This document shows positions 463-54,264 of a stretch of DNA of 64,000 bases, one piece after another. The stretch lies in NCBI GenBank assembly GCA_035700525.1, contig DASSON010000080.1:16041-80040 (forward strand), given 5' to 3'. This DNA comes from Burkholderiales bacterium. GTDB lineage: Bacteria > Pseudomonadota > Gammaproteobacteria > Burkholderiales > JBDZVW01. The notes below the pieces were generated by a model, which ran no database searches, was not told the DNA's origin, and was given only the letters and a program-made list of their open reading frames with translations. Each line of letters opens with the position of its first letter. The stretch's first letter is position 1. The translations under genes were made by a program, and so were the position numbers.

Positions 463-1700
463 CGGTCCACCTCGCCGAAAACGATGTCCTGCGTGCTGAT
501 GATCGCGACCACGTCAGCGATCATGTGCCCATGCACCATTTCGTCGAGTGACGCCAGATGCACGAATCCCGGCGCACGCAGCTTCAGCCGGTACGGCTTG
601 TTGGCGCCGTCCGAAATCAGGTAGACGCCGAATTCTCCCTTCGGCGCCTCGACCGCCGCGTAGGCCTCGCCTTCCGGCACGTGCATGCCTTCGGTGAAGA
701 GCTTGAAATGGTGAATCAGCTCTTCCATGTTCTGCTTCATCTTCATGCGCGACGGCGGCGTCACCTTGTGGTTGTCCACCATCACCGGTCCGCGATTGCT
801 GCGCAGCCAGTCGATGCATTGGCGCACGATGCGGTTGGCCTGGCGCATTTCCTCGATGCGCACCAGATAGCGGTCGTAGCAGTCGCCGTTGACGCCAACC
901 GGGATGTCGAATTCCATCCGGTCATAAACCTCGTACGGCTGCTTCTTGCGCAGATCCCATTCGACCCCCGAGCCGCGCAGCATCGGCCCGGTGAATCCGA
1001 GCGCCTTTGCGCGCTCCGGCGATACGACACCGATATCGACGGTGCGCTGCTTCCAGATGCGGTTGTCGGTCAGCAGCGTCTCGTAATCATCGACCAGCTT
1101 CGGAAAGCGCTGCGTGAAATCCTCGATGAAGTCGAGCAGTGATCCCTGGCGCGCGCTGTTCAGCTTGCGCAACGCGGCACGCGACGCGTCGTACTGCGGC
1201 ATGTGATCCGGCAGGTCGCGATAGACGCCGCCCGGGCGGTAATACGCGGCATGCAGTCGCGCGCCCGACACCGCCTCGTAACAGTCCATCAGGTCCTCAC
1301 GCTCGCGGAAGCAATACAGGAACACCGTCATCGCACCAATGTCGAGCGCATGCGCGCCCAGCCACAGCAGGTGATTCAGAATGCGCGTGATCTCGTCGAA
1401 CATGACGCGGATGTATTGCGCGCGGATCGGAATCTCGATCTGCAGCAGCTTCTCGATCGCCATCACGTACGCGTGCTCGTTGCACATCATCGACACGTAG
1501 TCGAGGCGGTCCATGTACGGCACCGACTGCAGGAAGGTCTTGTTCTCCGCCAGCTTCTCGGTCGCGCGGTGCAGCAGTCCGATATGCGGGTCGGCACGCT
1601 GGATCACTTCGCCATCCAGCTCCAGTACCAGCCGCAACACCCCGTGCGCCGCCGGATGCTGCGGCCCGAAGTTCATCGTGTAGTTGCGAATTTCAGCCAT
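459..1700 (-). CDS. nuoD: NADH-quinone oxidoreductase subunit D
   Basis: ORF 459..1754. Start trimmed to the ATG at 1700, giving [31 protein letters not shown], the canonical NuoD N-terminus. Full-length 49-kDa-subunit-like sequence. Confidence 0.95.
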
Positions 1701-2850: not shown

Positions 2851-3207
2851 TCATTCCCATTCGAGCGCGCCTTTCTTCCACTCGTAGATGAAGCCCACGA
2901 CGAGAATGGCGAGAAAAAGAATCATCGCCCACAGGCCGAACGTCCCCAGGTCACGCAGCACGGCGGCCCACGGAAAAAGAAAGGCGATTTCGAGGTCGAA
3001 CAGAATGAACAGGATCGCGACGAGGTAATAACGCACATTGAACTTCATGCGCGCATCTTCGAATGCCTCGAAACCACACTCGTACGGGGAAAGCTTTTCG
3101 TCATCGGGCCGATCCGGCGCCAGCAGCTTGCCGATCCCGATCAGCGCCACGCCGATCGCGATACCGACCATGATGAACAGCAATATCGGAAAATAACCTG
3201 CCAGCAT
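2851..3207 (-). CDS. nuoA: NADH-quinone oxidoreductase subunit A
   Basis: 118 aa, three hydrophobic helices, SPYECGF motif, first gene of the nuo block. Confidence 0.9.
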
Positions 3208-3363: not shown

Positions 3364-3448
3364 TGGTGCCGACGGCGAGACTCGAACTCGCACGACTTTC
3401 GCCACCGCCCCCTCAAGACGGCGTGTCTACCAATTCCACCACGTCGGC
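3364..3448 (-). tRNA. tRNA-Leu, anticodon GAG
   Basis: Reverse complement reads GCCGACGTGGTGGAATTGGTAGACACGCCGTCTTGAGGGGGCGGTGGCGAAAGTCGTGCGAGTTCGAGTCTCGCCGTCGGCACCA. Hand-folded: acceptor GCCGACG/CGTCGGC, 3-bp D stem GTG/CAC, anticodon stem CCGTC/GGCGG with loop TTGAGGG, long variable arm, T arm GCGAG-TTCGAGT-CTCGC, encoded CCA. Confidence 0.85.
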
Positions 3449-3459
3449 GCCTGAATCCG

Positions 3460-3538
3460 GTGAGGAGTAAGGAGTAAGGTGTAAGGAGTAAAACCGCCCC
3501 GAAATCAACCCCTCACTCCTTACCCCTCACGCCTCACG
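3460..3538. repeat. Heptamer-armed palindromic element, copy 1 (short variant without the GC core)
   Basis: 3460-3487 = GTGAGGA GTAAGGA GTAAGGT GTAAGGA. 3511-3538 = CCTCACT CCTTACC CCTCACG CCTCACG. The arms pair block for block. It fills the spacer between the secG stop (3541) and the tRNA-Leu 5' end (3448). Confidence 0.85.
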
Positions 3539-3540
3539 CA

Positions 3541-3909
3541 TCATTTAGGTATTTCCTGTGTCTTGTCCCGCGGGGCCGATGACGGAGCCGGCGCCGGGGT
3601 CGGGGCCTTCGGCGCGACCGGGGCCGCCTGTTTCTGCGTGGCCGGCGCCATACCCGACATCACGCCTTGCGCGCTGCTCTGGTGCGACGCCAGATAGGTC
3701 AGCCCCATGCTGGTCAGAAAGAATACCGTCGCCAGAATGGCCGTCGCGCGGCTCAGAAAATTGGCGGAGCCGGTGGCTCCGAACATGCTGCCGGAAGCGC
3801 CGCCGCCGAACGCGGCGCCGACATCGGCGCCCTTGCCATGCTGCAGCAATACCAGTCCGACGACGGCTATCGCCACCAATACATGAACTACCAATAGCGC
3901 AATTTCCAT
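3541..3909 (-). CDS. secG: Preprotein translocase subunit SecG
   Basis: ORF 3541..3972 trimmed to the ATG at 3909: MEIALLVVHVLVAIAVVGLVLLQHGKGADVGAAFGGGASGSMFGATGSANFLSR, a SecG signature, followed by a Pro/Ala-rich tail. Confidence 0.85.
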   Translation of the reverse strand: MEIALLVVHVLVAIAVVGLVLLQHGKGADVGAAFGGGASGSMFGATGSANFLSRATAILATVFFLTSMGLTYLASHQSSAQGVMSGMAPATQKQAAPVAPKAPTPAPAPSSAPRDKTQEIPK

Positions 3910-11804: not shown

Positions 11805-12164
11805 ATGAAGCGTTACCTGATCGCATTTACAGCCTGTGCTGCACTGTGCGCGGTTTCGGCTCCCGCCTTTGCTGATCACGATGATGCTGGTATCGCGATC
11901 GTCGGTGGAATCGTCGGCGGGATCATTGGCTCGACTTTGGGCGGCCCAGTCGTCTATGCTTCACCCCCTCCAGTAGTGTATGCGCCACCTCCCCCAGTGG
12001 TGTACGCACCGCCCCCCGAGGTGATCTATACACCGCCGCCGGTGGTTGTGGAGCAGCGTTACTACGCCCCCTATCCTTACTATGCGCCTCGTGCTTACTA
12101 CCGGGGCGAGAACCACGTGCGATGGGTGCGGCACTGGCATCATCACGACGATGACGATGATTGA
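11805..12164 (+). CDS. Small secreted PxPV-repeat protein with a His/Asp-rich C-terminus
   Basis: ORF 11595..12164 trimmed to the ATG at 11805, preceded by GGAAGTGAGG. Sequence MKRYLIAFTACAALCAVSAPAFA (signal peptide), Gly-zipper GGIVGGIIGSTLGG, repeats PPPVVYA PPPPVVYA PPPEVIYT PPPVVV, Tyr-rich segment, tail WHHHDDDDD. Confidence 0.6.
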   Translation: MKRYLIAFTACAALCAVSAPAFADHDDAGIAIVGGIVGGIIGSTLGGPVVYASPPPVVYAPPPPVVYAPPPEVIYTPPPVVVEQRYYAPYPYYAPRAYYRGENHVRWVRHWHHHDDDDD

Positions 12165-36468: not shown

Positions 36469-37296
36469 TCATTCCTGTCCCTGCACCGCAGCCAGCACCA
36501 TCAGCGCGTCGCGCGTTGCGGCAACATCATGCACGCGCACGATGTGCGCGCCGTTCTGCACTGCAATCAGCATCGCCGCGATGCTGGCAGGGACGCGCTC
36601 ATTCACTGCACGGCCGGTGATCAGACCGAGCGCCGATTTGCGTGAAAGTCCCGCGACGATCGCCGCGCCCGCTGGTTCGAATTCGCGCAAGCGACGCAAT
36701 AAGGCCAGATTATGCGCCAGCGTTTTGCCGAAGCCGAAACCGGGGTCGATCGCCAGCCTCTCGCCGGCCATGCCCGCGGCGCGCGCCGCCGCCAGCCGTT
36801 CTTCCAGAAACGCCCTCACCTCCGCCACCACGTCGTCGTAATGCGGCGCATGCTGCATGGTTTTCGGATCGCCCTGCATGTGCATGAAACACACGCCGGC
36901 ATCGGTTGCCGCCACTGCGTCCAACGCGCCGGGTGCGCGCAATGCGTTGATGTCGTTGATCATCGCCGCGCCGGCGGCGATCGCTTCACGCATCAATTGC
37001 GGTTTCTGCGTATCGACCGACAGCGGCACCGGAACGTCGCGCAGCGCATCGAGGACCGGAAGAATGCGCCGCCGTTCTTCATCCAGCGGCACGATATCCG
37101 AGCCGGGCCGGGTTGATTCGCCGCCGAAATCGAGAATGTCCGCACCCTCGTCGATCAGCCGGTGCGCCTGCGCGATGGCAGCGTCCGCCGTCGCGAATCG
37201 TCCGCCGTCAGAAAAGGAATCGGGCGTGATGTTGACCACGCCCATGATCAGCGGACGGTCCAGGGACAGTCTGAACTTGCCGCACCGGAAAAACAT
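36469..37296 (-). CDS. folP: Dihydropteroate synthase
   Basis: 275 aa with the [16 protein letters not shown] motif 17 residues after the start, the same spacing as E. coli FolP. Confidence 0.9.
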
Positions 37297-37297
37297 G

Positions 37298-37402
37298 GTG
37301 AGGAGTAAGGTGTGAGGTGTGAGGAGTAAGGGGCTTGAAGTTTGCGGCGCGCTCGGCGCGCAGCGCTACCAACTCCTCACTCCTTACCCCTCACTCCTCA
37401 CG
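37298..37402. repeat. Heptamer-armed palindromic element, copy 2
   Basis: 37298-37332 = GTGAGGA GTAAGGT GTGAGGT GTGAGGA GTAAGGG. Core 37333-37374 contains AAGTTTGCGGCGCGCTCGGCGCGC. 37375-37402 = CCTCACT CCTTACC CCTCACT CCTCACG. Lies 1 nt from the folP ATG and 7 nt from the ftsH stop. Confidence 0.9.
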
Positions 37403-37409
37403 GGGAACT

Positions 37410-39296
37410 TCAGGTTTCCTGTGCCGGAGTCGTGGTGGCTGCCGCGGTCGGCGGCGGATCCTTCGGCGGCGGCGCAGTGGTGGCGAGTGGTTTCGGCGGT
37501 CGCGGCGGACGCCCTTCCATGATGTCGGTGATCTGGTCGGAATCGATGGTTTCCCATTCGAGCAGCGCTTTCGCCATGATCTCGACCTTGTCGCGGTTGT
37601 CCTCGATCAGCTTGCGCGCCAGGCTGTACTGTTCGTCGATGATGCGACGGATTTCAGAATCCGCCCTCTGCAGCGTCGATTCGGAGACATTCTTGTGCGT
37701 CGTGATCGAACGTCCGAGGAACACCTCGCCATCGTTGTCGCCGTAGACCATCGGCCCCATCGCCTCGCTCATGCCCCAGCGCATCACCATGTTGCGCGCC
37801 ATCTCGGTCGCACGCTCGAAATCGTTCGACGCGCCGGTGGTCATCTGCTTCATGAATATTTCTTCGGCGATGCGGCCGCCGAACAGCACCGAGATGTTCT
37901 GCAGAATATGCTCGCGATCCATGCTGTAGCGATCCTGCACCGGCAGCTGCATCGTCACGCCCAGCGCGCGTCCGCGCGGAATGATCGTCACCTTGTGCAC
38001 CGGGTCGGTTTTCGGCAGCAGCCGCGCGGTCACCGCGTGGCCGGATTCGTGATAGGCGGTATTGCGGCGCTCTTCCTCGGGCATCACGATCGAGCGGCGC
38101 TCGGCGCCCATGATGATCTTGTCCTTCGCGCGCTCGAAGTCGTCCATGTCGACCAGGCGCTTGTTGGCGCGGGCCGCGAACAATGCCGCCTCGTTCACCA
38201 GGTTCGCCAGATCGGCGCCCGAAAAACCCGGGGTGCCGCGCGCCAGGATATCGGCGCGCACGTCGGGGCCCATCGGCACCTTGCGCATGTGCACGATCAG
38301 GATCTGCTCGCGCCCGCGGATATCGGGCAGCGGCACCACCACCTGGCGGTCGAAACGGCCCGGCCGCAGCAGCGCCGGATCGAGCACGTCGGGGCGGTTG
38401 GTGGCGGCGATCACGATCACGCCGGACGTGCCTTCGAAGCCGTCCATCTCGACCAGCAACTGGTTCAGCGTCTGCTCGCGCTCGTCGTTGCCGCCGCCGA
38501 GACCGGCGCCGCGCTGGCGGCCGACGGCGTCGATTTCGTCGATGAACACGATGCACGGCGCGTGCTTCTTCGCCTGCTCGAACATGTCGCGCACGCGCGC
38601 GGCACCGACGCCGACGAACATTTCGACGAAGTCGGAACCGGAAATGCTGAAGAACGGCACCTTCGCCTCGCCGGCAATCGCACGCGCCAGCAACGTCTTG
38701 CCGGTGCCCGGATTACCGACCATCAACACGCCGCGCGGAATGCGCCCGCCCAGCTTCTGGAACTTCCCGGGATCGCGCAGAAACTCGACCAGCTCGGAAA
38801 CTTCCTCTTTCGCCTCCTCGCAGCCCGCGACGTCGGCGAACGTGACCGTGTTGTTCGATTCGTCCAGCATGCGCGCGCGGCTCTTGCCGAACGAGAACGC
38901 CCCGCCGCGGCCGCCGCCCTGCATCTGGCGCATGAAGAATATCCAGACGCCGATCAGCAGCAGCATCGGGAACCACGACACGAAGATGTTCATCAGCAGC
39001 GACGGCTCGTGCTCCGGCTTGGCGTCGATCGTGACGCCGCTCTTCAGCAGGTCAGACACCAGCCATGGATCGGACGGCGAATACACGCTGAAGTGCTCGC
39101 CATTGGTCTTGATGCCCTTCAGCACGTGGCCTTCGATCGTCACCTTGCTGATCTGGCCCTGCTTCACGGCGTCCAGAAACTGCGAATACTCCATTTGTTT
39201 CTGGACCGTATGCTGCGAACTGAACTGGTTGAACACCGTCATCAGCACCAGCGCAATGACCAGCCAGATCGCTACATTTTTAATCAGATTGTTCAA
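37410..39296 (-). CDS. ftsH: ATP-dependent zinc metalloprotease FtsH
   Basis: 628 aa. Walker [18 protein letters not shown] region, zinc site HESGHAV. Confidence 0.97.
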
Positions 39297-46242: not shown

Positions 46243-47888
<1,646 letters not shown>

Positions 47889-47956: not shown

Positions 47957-48388
47957 GTGACTTATACCTCCGAACTGAAGAATATCGGCCTCAAGGCGAC
48001 GCTGCCACGGCTGCGTATTCTGGAGCTGTTCGAAAAGAGCGAAGAACGGCATCTGGGCGCCGAAGACGTCTACAAACTGTTGCTCAAGGAAGGCACCGAT
48101 ACCGGACTGGCAACCGTGTATCGCGTGCTGACCCAGTTTGAACAGGCGGGTCTGCTGGTGCGCCACCATTTCGAAGGCGGCCGGGCGGTATTCGAACTCA
48201 ATCGCGGCGATCATCATGATCACCTGGTTTGCCTGCAATGCGGCCACGTCGAAGAGTTTTTTGACGAAACCATCGAAAAGCAGCAAACCACGATCGCGAA
48301 AGATCGCGGCTTTACCATCCACGATCATTCACTCTATCTTTACGCCGATTGCACCAAGGTGAACTGTCCGTTTCGGCACCAGGGATAG
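47957..48388 (+). CDS. fur: Ferric uptake regulator
   Basis: 143 aa with a GTG start. RLRILELF...[15 protein letters not shown] (wHTH), [11 protein letters not shown], and a C-terminal CxxxxC. Confidence 0.9.
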
Positions 48389-48391
48389 GGC

Positions 48392-48488
48392 GTGAGGAGT
48401 GAGGCGTCAGGGGTGAGGGGTGAATAATGCGGCGCGCCAGGCGCGCCGGAAACGTCGACTCCTCACTCCTCACCCCTCACTCCTAACA
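48392..48488. repeat. Heptamer-armed palindromic element, copy 3
   Basis: 48392-48426 = GTGAGGA GTGAGGC GTCAGGG GTGAGGG GTGAATA. Core ATGCGGCGCGCCAGGCGCGCCGGAAACGTCGACT. 48461-48488 = CCTCACT CCTCACC CCTCACT CCTAACA. Starts 3 nt after the fur stop and overlaps the recN 3' end. Confidence 0.9.
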
Positions 48489-50130
48489 TCTCGGCCGCAT
48501 GCCGCCGCGTCGTCGCGGTGATCTTCACGCCACCCAGCATGCGCGCGATTTCCTCGACGCGGGCGTCGCGGCCAAGGGGGGATACGTGGCTGGTGACCTT
48601 GTCCTTGCCGGCATGCTTCACCACCTGCCATTGCGCATCACCGGCGGCGGCGACCTGCGGCAGATGAGTCACGCACATGACCTGGTGATTGCGGCCGAGC
48701 GTCTTCAGCATGCGGCCGACAATTTCGGCAACGCGCCCGCCAATGCCGGCATCGACTTCATCGAAAATCAGTGTCGGCACCTGCGCGACCGAGCTGGTCA
48801 CGGTCTGAATCGCAAGCGAAATGCGTGACAACTCGCCGCCGGAAGCGACGCGGCCGAGCGGACGCAGTTCCGCGCCGGCATGCGTGGCGATCAGAAATTC
48901 GATCCGTTCCAGCCCGTGCGCATTGCCTTCATCGAGCGCATCGAGCACGATTTCGAAACGGCTGCCCCCCAGCGCCAGCCGCTGCATCAGTTCGCTCACG
49001 TCGCGCGCCAGACGGCGCGCGGCTTTCGCCCGTCCCGCGCTCAGTCGGCGCGCACGCTCCAGGTAGCGCGTGTGCGCTTCCTGTTCACGCTGCCGCAGCG
49101 CCTCGAGGTCGCTGCCGGCATCCAGTGCCGCAACGCGCCCGCGCGCTTCATCGAGCAGTGCCGGCAGCGCCTCCGGCTGCACGCGATACTTGCGCGCGGC
49201 CGAATGCAATGCGTCGATGCGACTTTCCACCGTCCGCAGCCGCCGCGGGTCGAGCTCCAGACGTTCACAATAGTGACGCAATGCATAGACCGCTTCCTGC
49301 GCCTGTGCCTGCACCGGGTCAAGGATCGCGATGATGTCACCGAGACTGGTGTCGTAATCCTGCAGATGACGCAGCCGCGACACGACGGCATTGATCTGTG
49401 CCAGCACCGACTGTTCGCTTTCGGAAAGCGCATCCGACGCAAACTGCGCGCCTTCGAGCAGGCTCGCGGCATGGGCCAGGCGCTGGTGTTCCGCGGCCGT
49501 TTCTTCCCATTCACCGGGCGCCGGCGCCAGCGCCTCGAGTTCACGCAGCTGCCAGTCCAGCCGTTCGCGCTCGGCCTCGAGCGCCCGCGCGTCATGTTCG
49601 ACGGCGGCACGCTGCGCCCGTGCTTCCTGCCACGCGCGATGGCCCTGCGCCACGTCAAGGCCGTACTGATGCAGTCCGGCATAACGGTCCAGCAGTTCGC
49701 GCTGCACCGCCGGGCGCAACAGCGACTGGTGCTGATGCTGACCATGGATGTCGACCAGGAATTCCCCGGCTTCGCGCAACTGCTGCACCGTACAGGGCCG
49801 GCCGTTGATGAAGCTGCGCGAACGTCCGCCGGCGTCGATCACGCGCCGCATCAGACAGCCGCCCTCATCGATTGCCAGCGTATTGTCGGCCAGCCAGCGA
49901 CCGACCGCACTGTCCGCGGCAACATCGAATGCTGCGCTGACGTCGGCACGCTCCGCGCCGGCGCGCACCACGCCGGCATCCCCACGCCCCCCAAGCGCCA
50001 GCGCCAGCGCATCGATCAGGATCGACTTGCCGGCGCCGGTTTCACCGGTCAGCACCGTGAATCCCGCATCGAATTCGATGTCGAGGTGTTCGACGACGAC
50101 AAAATTATGGACGCTCAGGCTGCGCAACAT
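48463..50130 (-). CDS. recN: DNA repair protein RecN
   Basis: 555 aa: MLRSLSVHNFVVVEHLDIEFDAGFTVLTGETGAGKSI (Walker A), a long coiled coil and a C-terminal SMC-like ATPase half. Confidence 0.93.
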   Translation of the reverse strand: MLRSLSVHNFVVVEHLDIEFDAGFTVLTGETGAGKSILIDALALALGGRGDAGVVRAGAERADVSAAFDVAADSAVGRWLADNTLAIDEGGCLMRRVIDAGGRSRSFINGRPCTVQQLREAGEFLVDIHGQHQHQSLLRPAVQRELLDRYAGLHQYGLDVAQGHRAWQEARAQRAAVEHDARALEAERERLDWQLRELEALAPAPGEWEETAAEHQRLAHAASLLEGAQFASDALSESEQSVLAQINAVVSRLRHLQDYDTSLGDIIAILDPVQAQAQEAVYALRHYCERLELDPRRLRTVESRIDALHSAARKYRVQPEALPALLDEARGRVAALDAGSDLEALRQREQEAHTRYLERARRLSAGRAKAARRLARDVSELMQRLALGGSRFEIVLDALDEGNAHGLERIEFLIATHAGAELRPLGRVASGGELSRISLAIQTVTSSVAQVPTLIFDEVDAGIGGRVAEIVGRMLKTLGRNHQVMCVTHLPQVAAAGDAQWQVVKHAGKDKVTSHVSPLGRDARVEEIARMLGGVKITATTRRHAAEMLGVRGEE

Positions 50131-50139
50131 TGAAAGTGC

Positions 50140-50229
50140 GTGAGGAGTGAGGAGTCAGGTGTGAGGCGTTAAAGTTTCCGGCGCGCTCGGCGCGCCGCAT
50201 TTTCTACTCCTCACTCCTCACACCTCACG
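50140..50229. repeat. Heptamer-armed palindromic element, copy 4
   Basis: 50140-50174 = GTGAGGA GTGAGGA GTCAGGT GTGAGGC GTTAAAG. Core TTTCCGGCGCGCTCGGCGCGCCGCATTTTCTACT. 50209-50229 = CCTCACT CCTCACA CCTCACG. Lies 9 nt from the recN ATG (50130) and 3 nt from the nadK stop (50233). Confidence 0.9.
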
Positions 50230-50232
50230 TTT

Positions 50233-51105
50233 TTAAAGAAACTCGCTCCAGTGCAGTTTTCCGCGCAGCATATTGTAGTAGCTGTGCCCCACCGGATGCA
50301 GCAGCCGCACCATGTGATCGTAGCGCCGCACCATCACGCGATCGCCTTCGCGCAGGTCGAAGTGGGAGTGACTGTCGCAGTGCGCGCGCGCATCGGCGGC
50401 GTCCTTGATCACGATCTCGACCAGCGAATCACCGCTGATCACGATCGGGCGGTTACTGAGCGTATGCGGGCACACCGGCACCAGCGCCAGCATCGACAGC
50501 GACGGATGCACGATCGGGCCGCCGGCGGACAGCGCATAGGCGGTCGAGCCGGTAGGCGACGCCACGATCAGTCCATCGGAGCGCTGGGTGTAGATGAATT
50601 CGCCGTCGATGCGCATGTCGAATTCGATCATGCTGCCTTTCACGCCCTTGCTCACGACCACGTCATTGAACGCCAGTACGCTGAACACGCTGGACTCGCC
50701 GCTGAACACTTCGACCGACAGCAGCATGCGGTCCTCGGTCATGTAGTGCCCGTCGAGAATCGCGCCCAGCGTCTCGAACATCGTGCCGATCGAAATGTCG
50801 GTCAGAAAACCGAGGCGGCCCTGATTGACCCCGACCAGCGCGACATCGAATGGCGCGAAAGTGCGTGCGATGTTGAGCATCGTGCCGTCGCCGCCCAGCA
50901 CCACCGCCAGATCGGCGCGCCGCCCCATCTCCTCCAGCGTCAGCGCGGGATAGGAATGGGCGCTCGCATGCGCACCGGACAGCCGGTCGAGCAGCACGTC
51001 GACACCGCGGCCTTCGAGAAATCGCGCGAGTTCGAGCAACGGCCCGATGATTTCCGGACTTTTGTACTTGCCGATCAGCCCGACGCATGAGAATGACGGT
51101 TTCAT
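50233..51105 (-). CDS. nadK: NAD kinase
   Basis: 290 aa with the GGDGT motif (VVLGGDGTMLN) and the PpnK-like C-terminal domain. Confidence 0.9.
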   Translation of the reverse strand: MKPSFSCVGLIGKYKSPEIIGPLLELARFLEGRGVDVLLDRLSGAHASAHSYPALTLEEMGRRADLAVVLGGDGTMLNIARTFAPFDVALVGVNQGRLGFLTDISIGTMFETLGAILDGHYMTEDRMLLSVEVFSGESSVFSVLAFNDVVVSKGVKGSMIEFDMRIDGEFIYTQRSDGLIVASPTGSTAYALSAGGPIVHPSLSMLALVPVCPHTLSNRPIVISGDSLVEIVIKDAADARAHCDSHSHFDLREGDRVMVRRYDHMVRLLHPVGHSYYNMLRGKLHWSEFL

Positions 51106-51236: not shown

Positions 51237-52265
51237 ATGAATCTGATACTCAGCGAACGCGCCCAACTCCTGCTCAAAACACTCGTCGAACGCTATATTG
51301 CGGAAGGCCAGCCGGTCGGGTCGCGCACGCTTTCACGCTACTCCGGACTGGATCTGAGTCCCGCCAGCATCCGCAACGTGATGGCGGACCTCGAGGAGCT
51401 GGGGTTCATCGTCAGCCCGCATACTTCGGCCGGACGCATTCCGACCGCACGCGGCTATCGCTTCTTCGTCGATACCCTGCTCACCATCCAGCAGCTCGGC
51501 ACCATCGAAATCAGCCAGCTCGGCGGCCAGCTGCAGGCGGAGAACACACACCGGCTGGTGTCGTCGGCATCGCAACTGTTGTCCGACCTGACGCGCTTCG
51601 CCGGCGTCGTCGTCACCCCGCGCCGCAGTCCGGCGTTCCGCCACATCGAGTTTCTCGGCCTGTCGGAAAAGCGCATCCTGCTGATCATCGTCACGCCCGA
51701 CGGCGACGTGCAGAATCGCATCCTCGTGACCGAAAACACCTATTCGCCGGCGATGCTGGTGGAGGCCGGCAACATTCTGAATCAGAATTATGCCGGACTG
51801 TCGTTCGACGAAATCCGCCGGCGCATTCAGCAGGAGCTGAAGGAGCTGCGCGAAAACATGACGCGTCTGATGACTGCCGCGCTCGAGGCCGGCAGCCAGG
51901 CCGCCGACGAATCGTCCGAAAACTACGTGATCTCGGGCGAAAGCAATCTGCTGGAAGTGCAGGATCTGTCATCGAACATGGCCAGCCTGCGCCAGTTGTT
52001 CGACCTGTTCGAGAAAAAGACCGGCCTGCTGCAACTGCTCGACAGCAGTTCGCGCGCGCAGGGCGTGCAGATCTTCATCGGCGAGGAATCCGGGCTGGCG
52101 CCGCTCGACGAGTGCAGCGTGGTGACCGCCTCCTACGAGGTGGACGGCCAGGTCGTCGGCACGGTGGGCGTCATCGGACCCACGCGCATGGCTTACGAAC
52201 GCGTCATTCCGATCGTCGATATTACCGCGAAGCTGATGTCGAGCGCGCTGTCGCAGCACCCGTAG
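51237..52265 (+). CDS. hrcA: Heat-inducible transcription repressor HrcA
   Basis: ORF 51159..52265 trimmed to the ATG at 51237: [33 protein letters not shown]. Divergent from nadK. Confidence 0.9.
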
Positions 52266-52268
52266 CGA

Positions 52269-52358
52269 GTGAGGCGTGAGGTGTCAGGAGTGAATAACGC
52301 GGCGCGCCATACGCGCCGGAAACTTGAACTCCTCACTCCTTACCCCTCACGCCCCACG
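52269..52358. repeat. Heptamer-armed palindromic element, copy 5
   Basis: 52269-52296 = GTGAGGC GTGAGGT GTCAGGA GTGAATA. Core ACGCGGCGCGCCATACGCGCCGGAAACTTGAACT. 52331-52358 = CCTCACT CCTTACC CCTCACG CCCCACG. Starts 3 nt after the hrcA stop and ends 2-8 nt before the hemH start. Confidence 0.9.
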
Positions 52359-53568: not shown

Positions 53569-54264
53569 ATGCAGGACAAACCGCGAATCGAGCCGCGACT
53601 GAACGCTGATCCTGACGAAACCATCAAACCGCAGGAAAAGCCTACCGCCGCACCGCGCGCAAAATCCGAGGACCGCGCGCCGGCTTCCACTGATCGCACG
53701 CCGACTCCTGCCCAGCGCGCACCGGCTTCAGCCGATCGCACACCGGCCGCCGCAGGTGCCGACGAGGCCACCCGCGCCGCTGCCGGACACGCTGATGCGG
53801 CGCTGCAGGAACGCCTGAAGCAGGCCGAACAAGCAGTGCAGGAACACCGTGAGGCGTGGCTGCGTGCCGTGGCCGAAGCCGACAACATCCGCAAGCGCAC
53901 GCGGGCGGAAGCGTCCAATGCGCAGCGCTTTGCGATCGAGTCGTTCGCGAAGGAACTGCTGGCGGTGCGCGACAGCCTGGAAGCAGCATTGGCGGCCGAC
54001 AATACGACGGTGGAAGCACTGAAAAACGGCGTGGAGTTGACGCTCAGGCAGCTCGATGCGGCCTTTTCCCGCTTCAACGTGACGGAGGTCAATCCGCAAG
54101 GCGAGAAATTCGATCCGCATCGCCACGAGGCGATGACCACGATAGAATCCGACGCTGAACCGAACACCGTGATCAACGTGCTGCAGAAGGGATACGTGCT
54201 GCACGATCGGGTGCTGCGTCCGGCACTGGTCACCGTGGCCAAGTCGAAATCGGTTGAAAGCTAG
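53569..54264 (+). CDS. grpE: Nucleotide exchange factor GrpE
   Basis: 231 aa. Low-complexity N-terminus, then [20 protein letters not shown]...FDPHRHEAM, the GrpE core. Confidence 0.9.

Follow-up and report, generated by a model that had tools for sequence, protein, structure and literature searches.

MITEs (miniature inverted-repeat transposable elements, Correia/NEMIS among them) and the palindromic elements of Rickettsia (RPEs) are non-coding foldbacks of ~100-150 nucleotides (nt) with inverted ends that can insert within or beside genes and contribute coding sequence; MITEs have terminal inverted repeats of unique sequence and target-site duplications, and RPEs are translated through in frame. 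Xanthomonas and Nostoc have arrays of G-rich heptamers (GGGAATC and GGGGAYT, respectively), four units being the commonest length. These form mostly convergent inverted pairs capable of stem-loop formation, with 70-75 pairs per genome; 7-11% partly overlap open reading frames (ORFs), and related species keep most of them between the same genes (Rehm et al. 2015, PMC4692102). In marine Beggiatoaceae, forward arrays of TAACTGA stop all three frames and overlap only the last 18 nt or less of an ORF; 13 sets overlap the upstream stop codon, and few have a Shine-Dalgarno sequence before the next gene (MacGregor 2015, PMC4679880). Geobacter metallireducens has GGACCGG ×4 elements and hairpin-like pairs of MTYCTGA ×5 (Aklujkar et al. 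2009, PMC2700814). The TAG stop of a flanking ORF is often furnished by the terminus of a GTAG-type repetitive extragenic palindromic (REP) sequence (PMC3733652), and ribosomes stall and translation falls where a REP lies no more than 15 nt from a stop (Liang et al. 2015, as summarised in PMC12306157). Here we analyse a 64,000-nt stretch (the window) of a genome of an uncultured member of the Burkholderiales (assembly GCA_035700525.1, contig DASSON010000080.1, positions 16,041 to 80,040), in which a tandem-heptamer foldback, copy c3 among five family copies in the window, lies between the convergent genes fur and recN and holds the recN stop codon. With a probability of about 0.62, c3 is one copy of a dispersed family of REP-like or MITE-like foldbacks (~95-105 nt) that was acquired in the fur-recN spacer, closes recN and would behave like a REP at the RNA level.

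The c3 foldback consists of four GTGAGGN heptamers, a GC-rich core and four inverted NCCTNAC heptamers (Table 1). Its arms form an inverted repeat of 30 nt that is 83% complementary, and the region is predicted to fold at -69.6 kcal/mol (z = -6.2) on the plus strand and at -62.5 kcal/mol (z = -5.4) on the minus strand. Allowing one mismatch at most, GTGAGGNGTGAGG occurs 27 times in the window, against 0.11 occurrences expected. Read on the recN sense strand, the C-rich arm is GTTAGGA GTGAGGG GTGAGGA GTGAGGA, and the gene's 3' end, ATG TTA GGA GTG AGG GGT GAG GAG TGA (M L G V R G E E stop), overlaps the element by 25-26 nt in strict heptamer register, such that the final G of the M548 codon (48487) doubles as the first base of the outermost heptamer. 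On the other side, all close relatives keep the C-terminus of Fur (...CPFRHQG) together with its stop; the stem begins 3 nt past the fur stop and 22 nt ahead of that of recN. An earlier note on this DNA, made from the letters, had placed the fur TAG at 48386-48388 and the G-rich arm from 48392, with a gap of 3 nt, and had read LGVRGEE and the stop in heptamer-repeat DNA; the positions are exact to the base and the reading agrees letter for letter.

How much of this tail belongs to the element was judged against 116 RecN homologues of 60-66% identity. Their conservation extends to ...HAAEML, which ends at L549 here (the earlier note had singled out residue ~548), and gives way to a short, variable tail of four residues in 58 homologues, five in 31 and up to 17 in others. 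A glycine follows L549 in 68% of them and K/R stands at the third position in 66%; G-[VIAML]-[KR] is found in 42% and GV[KR] in 17%. Three relatives that have no GTGAGG arm at this place end differently from the window, in GGA GTC AAA AAC TGA, GGA GTT AAG AGC TAA and GGC GTG AAA ACT TAA. Because G-[VIAML]-[KR] is common in the homologues and recurs in these arm-less relatives, the L-G-V-basic stretch is ancestral. By contrast, none of the 116 homologues outside the element-bearing clade ends in GEE, GVRGEE or EE, and no orthologue among them ends in LGVRGEE, so the idea that the element shaped the recN terminus survives. What is new in recN is a K-to-R change at position 552, an extension of about three residues (GEE), and the stop. 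The earlier note had credited the element with the last seven codons as well as the stop; all of them do lie in repeat DNA, but L-G-V-basic is older, and only GEE and the stop are new.

The codons at the junction carry the mark of both sequences. TTA makes up 0.7% of leucine codons, GGA 9.2% of glycine codons and AGG 2.3% of arginine codons (11,333 codons, from 28 ORFs of the window that are long and rich in G+C at third codon positions, GC3), and these are the codons used at L549, G550 and R552, a joint choice with a probability of ~1.5e-5. Since they are heptamer-type and at the same time very rare in the genome, repeat and coding constraints overlap here. The outer unit GTTAGGA and the T before it depart from the consensus C-GTGAGGA at exactly two bases; in the recN frame the consensus would read ACG TGA and the actual sequence reads ATG TTA, so that Met548 and Leu549 are kept and a premature stop is removed. 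Repeat arm and coding sequence have thus become adjusted to each other.

We envisage that an ancestor of this Burkholderiales clade acquired c3 in the very short spacer of fur and recN, and that the recN frame then ran into the G-rich arm and was closed there. A gene that enters such an arm would gain a short tail, VR(G/S)EE or EE, or stop at once, and RecN would tolerate the new end because the sequence after ...AEML is naturally short and variable. Two routes may have led to the present codons. The element may have inserted at the heptamer-like native GGN-GTG-AAR, after which the stem was extended and CTN-GGN was recoded to TTA-GGA; the 3+3 arms and the TTG GGC codons of relative L001 fit this route. 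Alternatively, the arm may have overwritten native codons that were later repaired, which the family's usual 4+4 arms would fit. We lean slightly towards recoding of native codons over repair of the element. At the RNA level, by analogy with REPs, a stable 3' stem-loop could buffer messenger RNA (mRNA) against decay, and a stem that starts ahead of the recN stop may slow terminating ribosomes and lower RecN output. Given the distances of the stem from the two stop codons, both genes are candidates for a REP-like effect.

The age of the insertion can be read from relatives. Among the GTDB representative genomes none exceeded 65% RecN identity, and close relatives were found through look-ups of protein matches; in these the order hemH-hrcA-nadK-recN-fur-bamE-dapB is kept. 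An identical RecN protein is on record from a JGI assembly (P0001), and L005, an independent NCBI metagenome-assembled genome (MAG) with 94% RecN identity, has the element intact with the same 27-nt tail. In L001 and L002 (85%) both arms and half of the core are recognisable in decayed form, with three units on the fur side, and recN ends in ATG TTG GGC GTG AAG AAT GAG GAA TGA (GVKNEE). In L003, whose RecN protein is that of L001, the decayed element has a further internal deletion of 28 nt, and in L004 (90%) the recN-side arm only is left, GCGAGGA TGAAGGA TGAGGGA TGA, giving the tail GTARMKDEG. As the element stands at the same place in L005, L001/L002 and L004, the insertion predates the clade, and the coding-side arm outlasts the other parts of the element. 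Between the window and L005, the 74 non-coding nt of c3 differ at 3 positions, whereas recN and fur differ at 15.9% of their fourfold sites (Fisher p = 0.005); such slow divergence may reflect either constraint or homogenisation. Two details of this junction may be added. The 3 nt from the fur stop to the arm are kept, as GGC in the window and L005 and as GAC in L001, and the L003 deletion (2097-2128, compared with L001 4668-4727) is bounded by CGC microhomology, a repeat polymorphism at the population level.

Window copies c1-c5 align over both arms and four of them (c2-c5) also over the core; their ends read CGTGAGG...CCTCACG. The Tandem Repeats Finder (TRF) reported a period of 7 at all five loci, with four units per arm in c3, and each of the five copies starts within 8 nt of a stop codon or contains one. 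The core AATGCGGCGCGCCnnGCGCGCCGGAAAC points the same way in c3 and c5 and the opposite way in c2 and c4, with the arm order unchanged (GTCAGG in the same arm). It is also flipped between c5 and its counterpart at the orthologous hrcA-hemH site of L001 (746-866), which suggests that the core may invert by recombination between the inverted arms. Downstream of c2, c4 and c5, the start codons of folP, recN and hemH lie 0-10 nt past the C-rich arm, have no Shine-Dalgarno sequence and leave no room for a promoter.

Table 1. Positions in the window of c3 and its neighbours, and of the other copies of the family. Gene identities are from Pfam and that of the transfer RNA (tRNA) from Rfam, unless stated otherwise.
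Feature	Position	Strand	Remarks
fur	47957-48388	+	ORF list; Pfam FUR match E = 1.8e-44; stop TAG 48386-48388
Spacer GGC, fur stop to c3	48389-48391		3 nt
c3, whole element	48392-48487		3 nt past fur stop; recN stop inside
c3 G-rich arm	48392-48419	+	GTGAGGA GTGAGGC GTCAGGG GTGAGGG
c3 inner unit GTGAATA, after G-rich arm	to 48426	+	
c3 GC-rich palindromic core GCGGCGCGCCAGGCGCGCCGG	about 48428-48449		from alignment, fold and comparison of orientations
c3 C-rich arm	48460-48487	+	TCCTCAC TCCTCAC CCCTCAC TCCTAAC
recN	48463-50130	-	555 aa; homologues at E = 0, named RecN by their sources
recN codons L549-E555 and stop	48463-48486	-	stop TGA 48463-48465; all within c3 C-rich arm
c1	3460-3537		3 nt past secG stop (3541-3543, -); 11 nt before co-directional tRNA (3367-3448); without GC core
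c2	37298-37401		8 nt past ftsH stop (37410-37412); abuts folP start codon (37294-37296); core reversed
c4	50140-50228		4 nt past nadK stop (50233-50235); 9 nt before recN ATG (50128-50130); core reversed
c5	52262-52357		hrcA TAG (52263-52265) inside degenerate outer unit GTAGCGA; hemH ATG ~10 nt after far arm

At the hrcA site, the stop itself differs between orthologues: in the window it is the TAG of GTAGCGA (52262-52268), in L004 the TGA of GTGAAGT (~285-292), and in L001 (~855-866) the hrcA TAG is followed directly by an in-frame TGA supplied by a heptamer. The HrcA tails vary accordingly (QHP in the window, QHS in L004 and QH in L001). TRF also reported three other tandem repeats in the window, at 11945-12017 (24 nt ×3), 47295-47356 (27 nt ×2.3) and 53680-53747 (21 nt ×3.2); the one of 27 nt falls within the Ala/Pro/Ser-rich region of an ORF (47085-47888, minus strand) that stands at the place of BamE in syntenic relatives.

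Against L001 and L004, the other copies compare unevenly. Copy c4 is 81% identical to its counterpart in L001 and unalignable with that of L004, which has TGAAGGA units and another core; c5 is 78% identical to that of L004. Unit number shifts by one in either direction between orthologues (a 7-nt indel in c4). In the nadK-recN spacer, ~100 nt upstream of the recN start, heptamer hairpins are also present in L006, L008, L009 and L206-L209, all at 60% RecN identity or above, built from lineage-specific units (GTGATGR/GTAATGR, GGTAAGT, GTGATTC, GGAAGGC, GTGAAAG and GAGAGGC). An automatic screen of the relatives at or above this identity found such hairpins in 5 of 10, and inspection by eye added two more; below 60% RecN identity none was found in 70 relatives. 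Relatives without the hairpin have only 2-25 nt in this spacer, likewise without a Shine-Dalgarno sequence. The nadK-recN hairpin keeps its place and architecture while its sequence turns over. At the recN-fur junction the same kind of overlap occurs with other units, GTGAATG in L006 (tail GAVNGK) and, in L007, a TAA stop inside CTAAGGG. Downstream of recN, L206 (4163-4230) and L207 (4163-4225) have tandem 9-mers (ACGCAAAGG-like) in place of heptamers, and in L206 an arm of GTGAAGG ×3 abuts the fur stop ~200 nt away. Such foldbacks abound across the clade.

Why such an arm should end genes follows from its unit. GTGAGGN contains TGA every 7 nt (at positions 2-4; TAA in GTAAGGN). Because 7 cannot be divided by 3, three units between them place a stop in every frame; stops are absent from the C-rich strand. 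In an inverted repeat that runs from G-rich to C-rich arm, both strands read the G-rich arm first, and a gene that enters from either side therefore ends within 21 nt. The recN frame meets its stop in unit 4, the hrcA frame in the outer unit of c5. The same polarity holds beyond the window: metagenome contigs were scanned for the C-arm motif, and more than 120 of them, with a GC content of 0.38-0.71, matched. Among 149 arrays of at least three units a G-rich arm lay within 120 nt upstream in 47 and downstream in 0, so that every paired GTNAGGN/NCCTNAC array has its G-rich arm first. Of 22 hairpin-strand entries with a confidently called upstream gene, 8 have the stop within the arm, 11 have it 1-12 nt ahead of the arm and 3 have it 13-30 nt ahead; 19 of the 22 thus repeat the placement of the window copies. 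Several ORFs in unrelated contigs end in such arms that by eye resemble known proteins, namely a PyrE-like one with ...SGVRSEE before the stop (L124 ~1191-1216, plus strand), a LysR-like one with ...ELGVRS (L098 ~3094-3113, plus strand) and a GyrA-like one with ...DGEE (L202, minus strand, around 1530); three further ORFs that look real by eye do so too. The PyrE-, LysR- and GyrA-like tails are convergent with the GVRGEE of RecN, whose own tail is one of a small set dictated by the GTGAGGN unit. About two thirds of the C-arm arrays are unpaired, and some low-GC contigs (such as L102, L179 and L201) have long direct arrays.

Several observations weigh against acquisition as a mobile element with a role in RNA. 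The counts of stop positions in the 22 hairpin entries depend on gene calls by a GC3 rule with stops no more than 60 nt from the arm, a conservative choice that dropped some true genes including recN; taken without gene filtering, stop positions are confounded by spurious antisense ORFs in high-GC DNA. Target-site duplications are absent around all five copies. Neither a mobilising enzyme nor an empty site nor a recent insertion was seen, and we therefore infer mobility only from the dispersed, near-identical arms and core; among the ~30 larger ORFs of the window that were scanned there was no transposase or REP-associated tyrosine transposase (RAYT), and the matched families were all of core housekeeping or transport. 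That orthologous copies have decayed or been replaced (c3 in L001 and L004, c4 in L004) fits weak or no selection. Across 19 hairpins with one-sided transcription, G.U and A.C oppositions between the arms were equally frequent (56 vs 54), with no strand signal, and the variable seventh base of opposite heptamers showed no co-variation by inspection; a role at the RNA level is therefore hypothetical.

The other explanations we considered differ in what they make of the stem and of its origin. The earlier note had suggested that c3 could serve the convergent genes fur and recN as a bidirectional terminator; on this view the recN overlap would be incidental. Its stem is very stable on both strands, it sits exactly between two convergent stop codons, and all copies are downstream of a stop codon. 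Yet neither arm is followed by a U tract or T run (the note itself had remarked that the hairpin has no U tracts), and a terminator scan called no site at 48392-48487; moreover, ftsH-folP, nadK-recN and hrcA-hemH, pairs of adjacent co-directional genes, have their spacers filled by sister copies that leave 0-10 nt to the next start, and c1 lies between secG and a co-directional tRNA gene. As there is no room for a promoter at c2, c4 and c5, the downstream genes would depend on read-through if these copies were terminators. In a scan for terminator and promoter consensus sequences, the sole match related to the element was in the core of c4, on the strand antisense to nadK and recN; matches to the LexA box of an SOS promoter (CTGT-N8-ACAG) in or near c4 were at chance level, with none upstream of recN, and an Rfam 15 scan of the window at gathering score returned the one tRNA and no family at c3. 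A terminator role is unlikely on these grounds. The recN overlap could also be an artefact of assembly or sequencing, with the true stop upstream, in that metagenome assemblies are in general liable to errors at short tandem repeats; against it stand the identical protein in another assembly, the identical 27-nt tail in an independent MAG, and the related tails read in frame in L001-L004, which together leave it a negligible chance and clear the doubt about a sequencing error that the earlier note had raised.

A different origin is conceivable, in which the arms are simple sequence repeats (SSRs) grown locally by polymerase slippage on a 7-nt unit that takes in the gene's own stop region, and became palindromic later, the recN tail being self-grown. 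Among the long SSRs of bacteria, those with heptamer units are the most over-represented (Mrazek, cited in PMC4692102 and PMC4679880), unit number varies by one between orthologues, the hairpins in the relatives' nadK-recN spacers have lineage-specific units, and the native recN tail GGN GTG AAR resembles a heptamer unit. This account is nonetheless doubtful, because the unit, the arm order (with GTCAGG in one and the same arm) and a ~25-nt GC core unrelated to the flanking genes are common to the window copies, which implies that a whole element was copied, and because the fur-side arm cannot derive from the recN stop region. The stem could also be a functional translational device that stalls ribosomes at the recN stop and brings stop and start together in the co-directional spacers. 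Stops within 8 nt of the 5' arm or inside it in all copies, SD-less (Shine-Dalgarno-less) starts 0-10 nt past the 3' arm at c2, c4 and c5, the slower divergence of c3 than of fourfold sites, and the persistence of nadK-recN hairpins across the clade despite sequence turnover would all suit it, as would the lowered translation described for E. coli REPs no more than 15 nt from a stop (PMC12306157). But the pairing has no strand-specific wobble signal, several orthologous copies decay, and relatives without the hairpin have the same short SD-less spacer, which places the lack of an SD before the element; such a device is quite unlikely. Equally speculative is the idea that the foldbacks form a clade-wide intercistronic module, combining stops in all frames of both strands with a stem that bridges the upstream stop (0-8 nt) and the downstream start (0-9 nt). 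If this improbable view were true, nadK-recN, ftsH-folP and hrcA-hemH would remain translationally coupled despite an insert of ~90 nt, much as in ribosome shunting but in bacteria; at convergent ends such as fur/recN, termination would be throttled by the same stem; and the lineage-specific units at conserved positions and the G-arm-first polarity would reflect selection or a co-evolving trans-acting factor.

On the reading we prefer, a dispersed foldback acquired next to recN and closing it, the last few codons and the stop of the core genes recN and hrcA come from repeat DNA in this lineage. C-terminal differences between orthologues would therefore reflect repeat turnover and not protein evolution. 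The locus is a clean and dated example of an all-frame-stop heptamer foldback that landed on a gene end at almost no cost, and the nine bases ATG TTA GGA display the constraints of repeat and protein together. The family, with its relatives built from other units, offers a good system in which to study effects of hairpins on mRNA decay or translation termination. Taken singly, the c3/recN finding alters no current view.

In comparison with the described systems, the four-unit inverted heptamer arrays near ORF 3' ends resemble the Xanthomonas and Nostoc pairs; unlike GGGAATC, GTGAGGN contains a stop codon and has GG runs only, a weak G-quadruplex candidate, and unlike either system the elements here have a conserved GC-rich palindromic core, lie much nearer to stops (0-8 nt) and belong to an uncultured betaproteobacterial host. 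With TAACTGA, GTGAGGN shares the stop codon in the unit, the closure of all frames and an overlap limited to the ORF end, whereas the TAACTGA sets are direct repeats (with one inverted set), mostly upstream of starts, with unstructured RNA and no core. The Geobacter families are likewise multicopy, with four or five tandem heptamers, some of them strand-switching pairs, between or sometimes within genes; their units differ, and their authors proposed regulator binding sites or regulatory RNAs and reported no relation to stop codons. REPs and the bacterial interspersed mosaic elements (BIMEs) they compose are high-copy extragenic palindromes at gene 3' ends without target-site duplications, as here, and REPs are credited with mRNA stabilisation; a REP is, however, a single palindrome of 20-40 nt with a GTAG or CGTC head, while the present element measures ~96-100 nt, has a tandem-heptamer stem and no GTAG head, and no RAYT accompanies it among the scanned window ORFs. 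From MITEs and RPEs it differs in that its arms are tandem heptamers, no target-site duplication is present and the arm terminates the ORF. In the collection of papers searched, the exact unit dimers matched unrelated primer sequences only. The GTGAGGN family is thus undescribed, but its kind, and the kind of event seen at recN, are already known, the logic having been published for TAACTGA, GGGAATC and REP sequences; for heptamer repeats so rich in stop codons and placed against gene ends, an end such as that of recN is nothing unusual.

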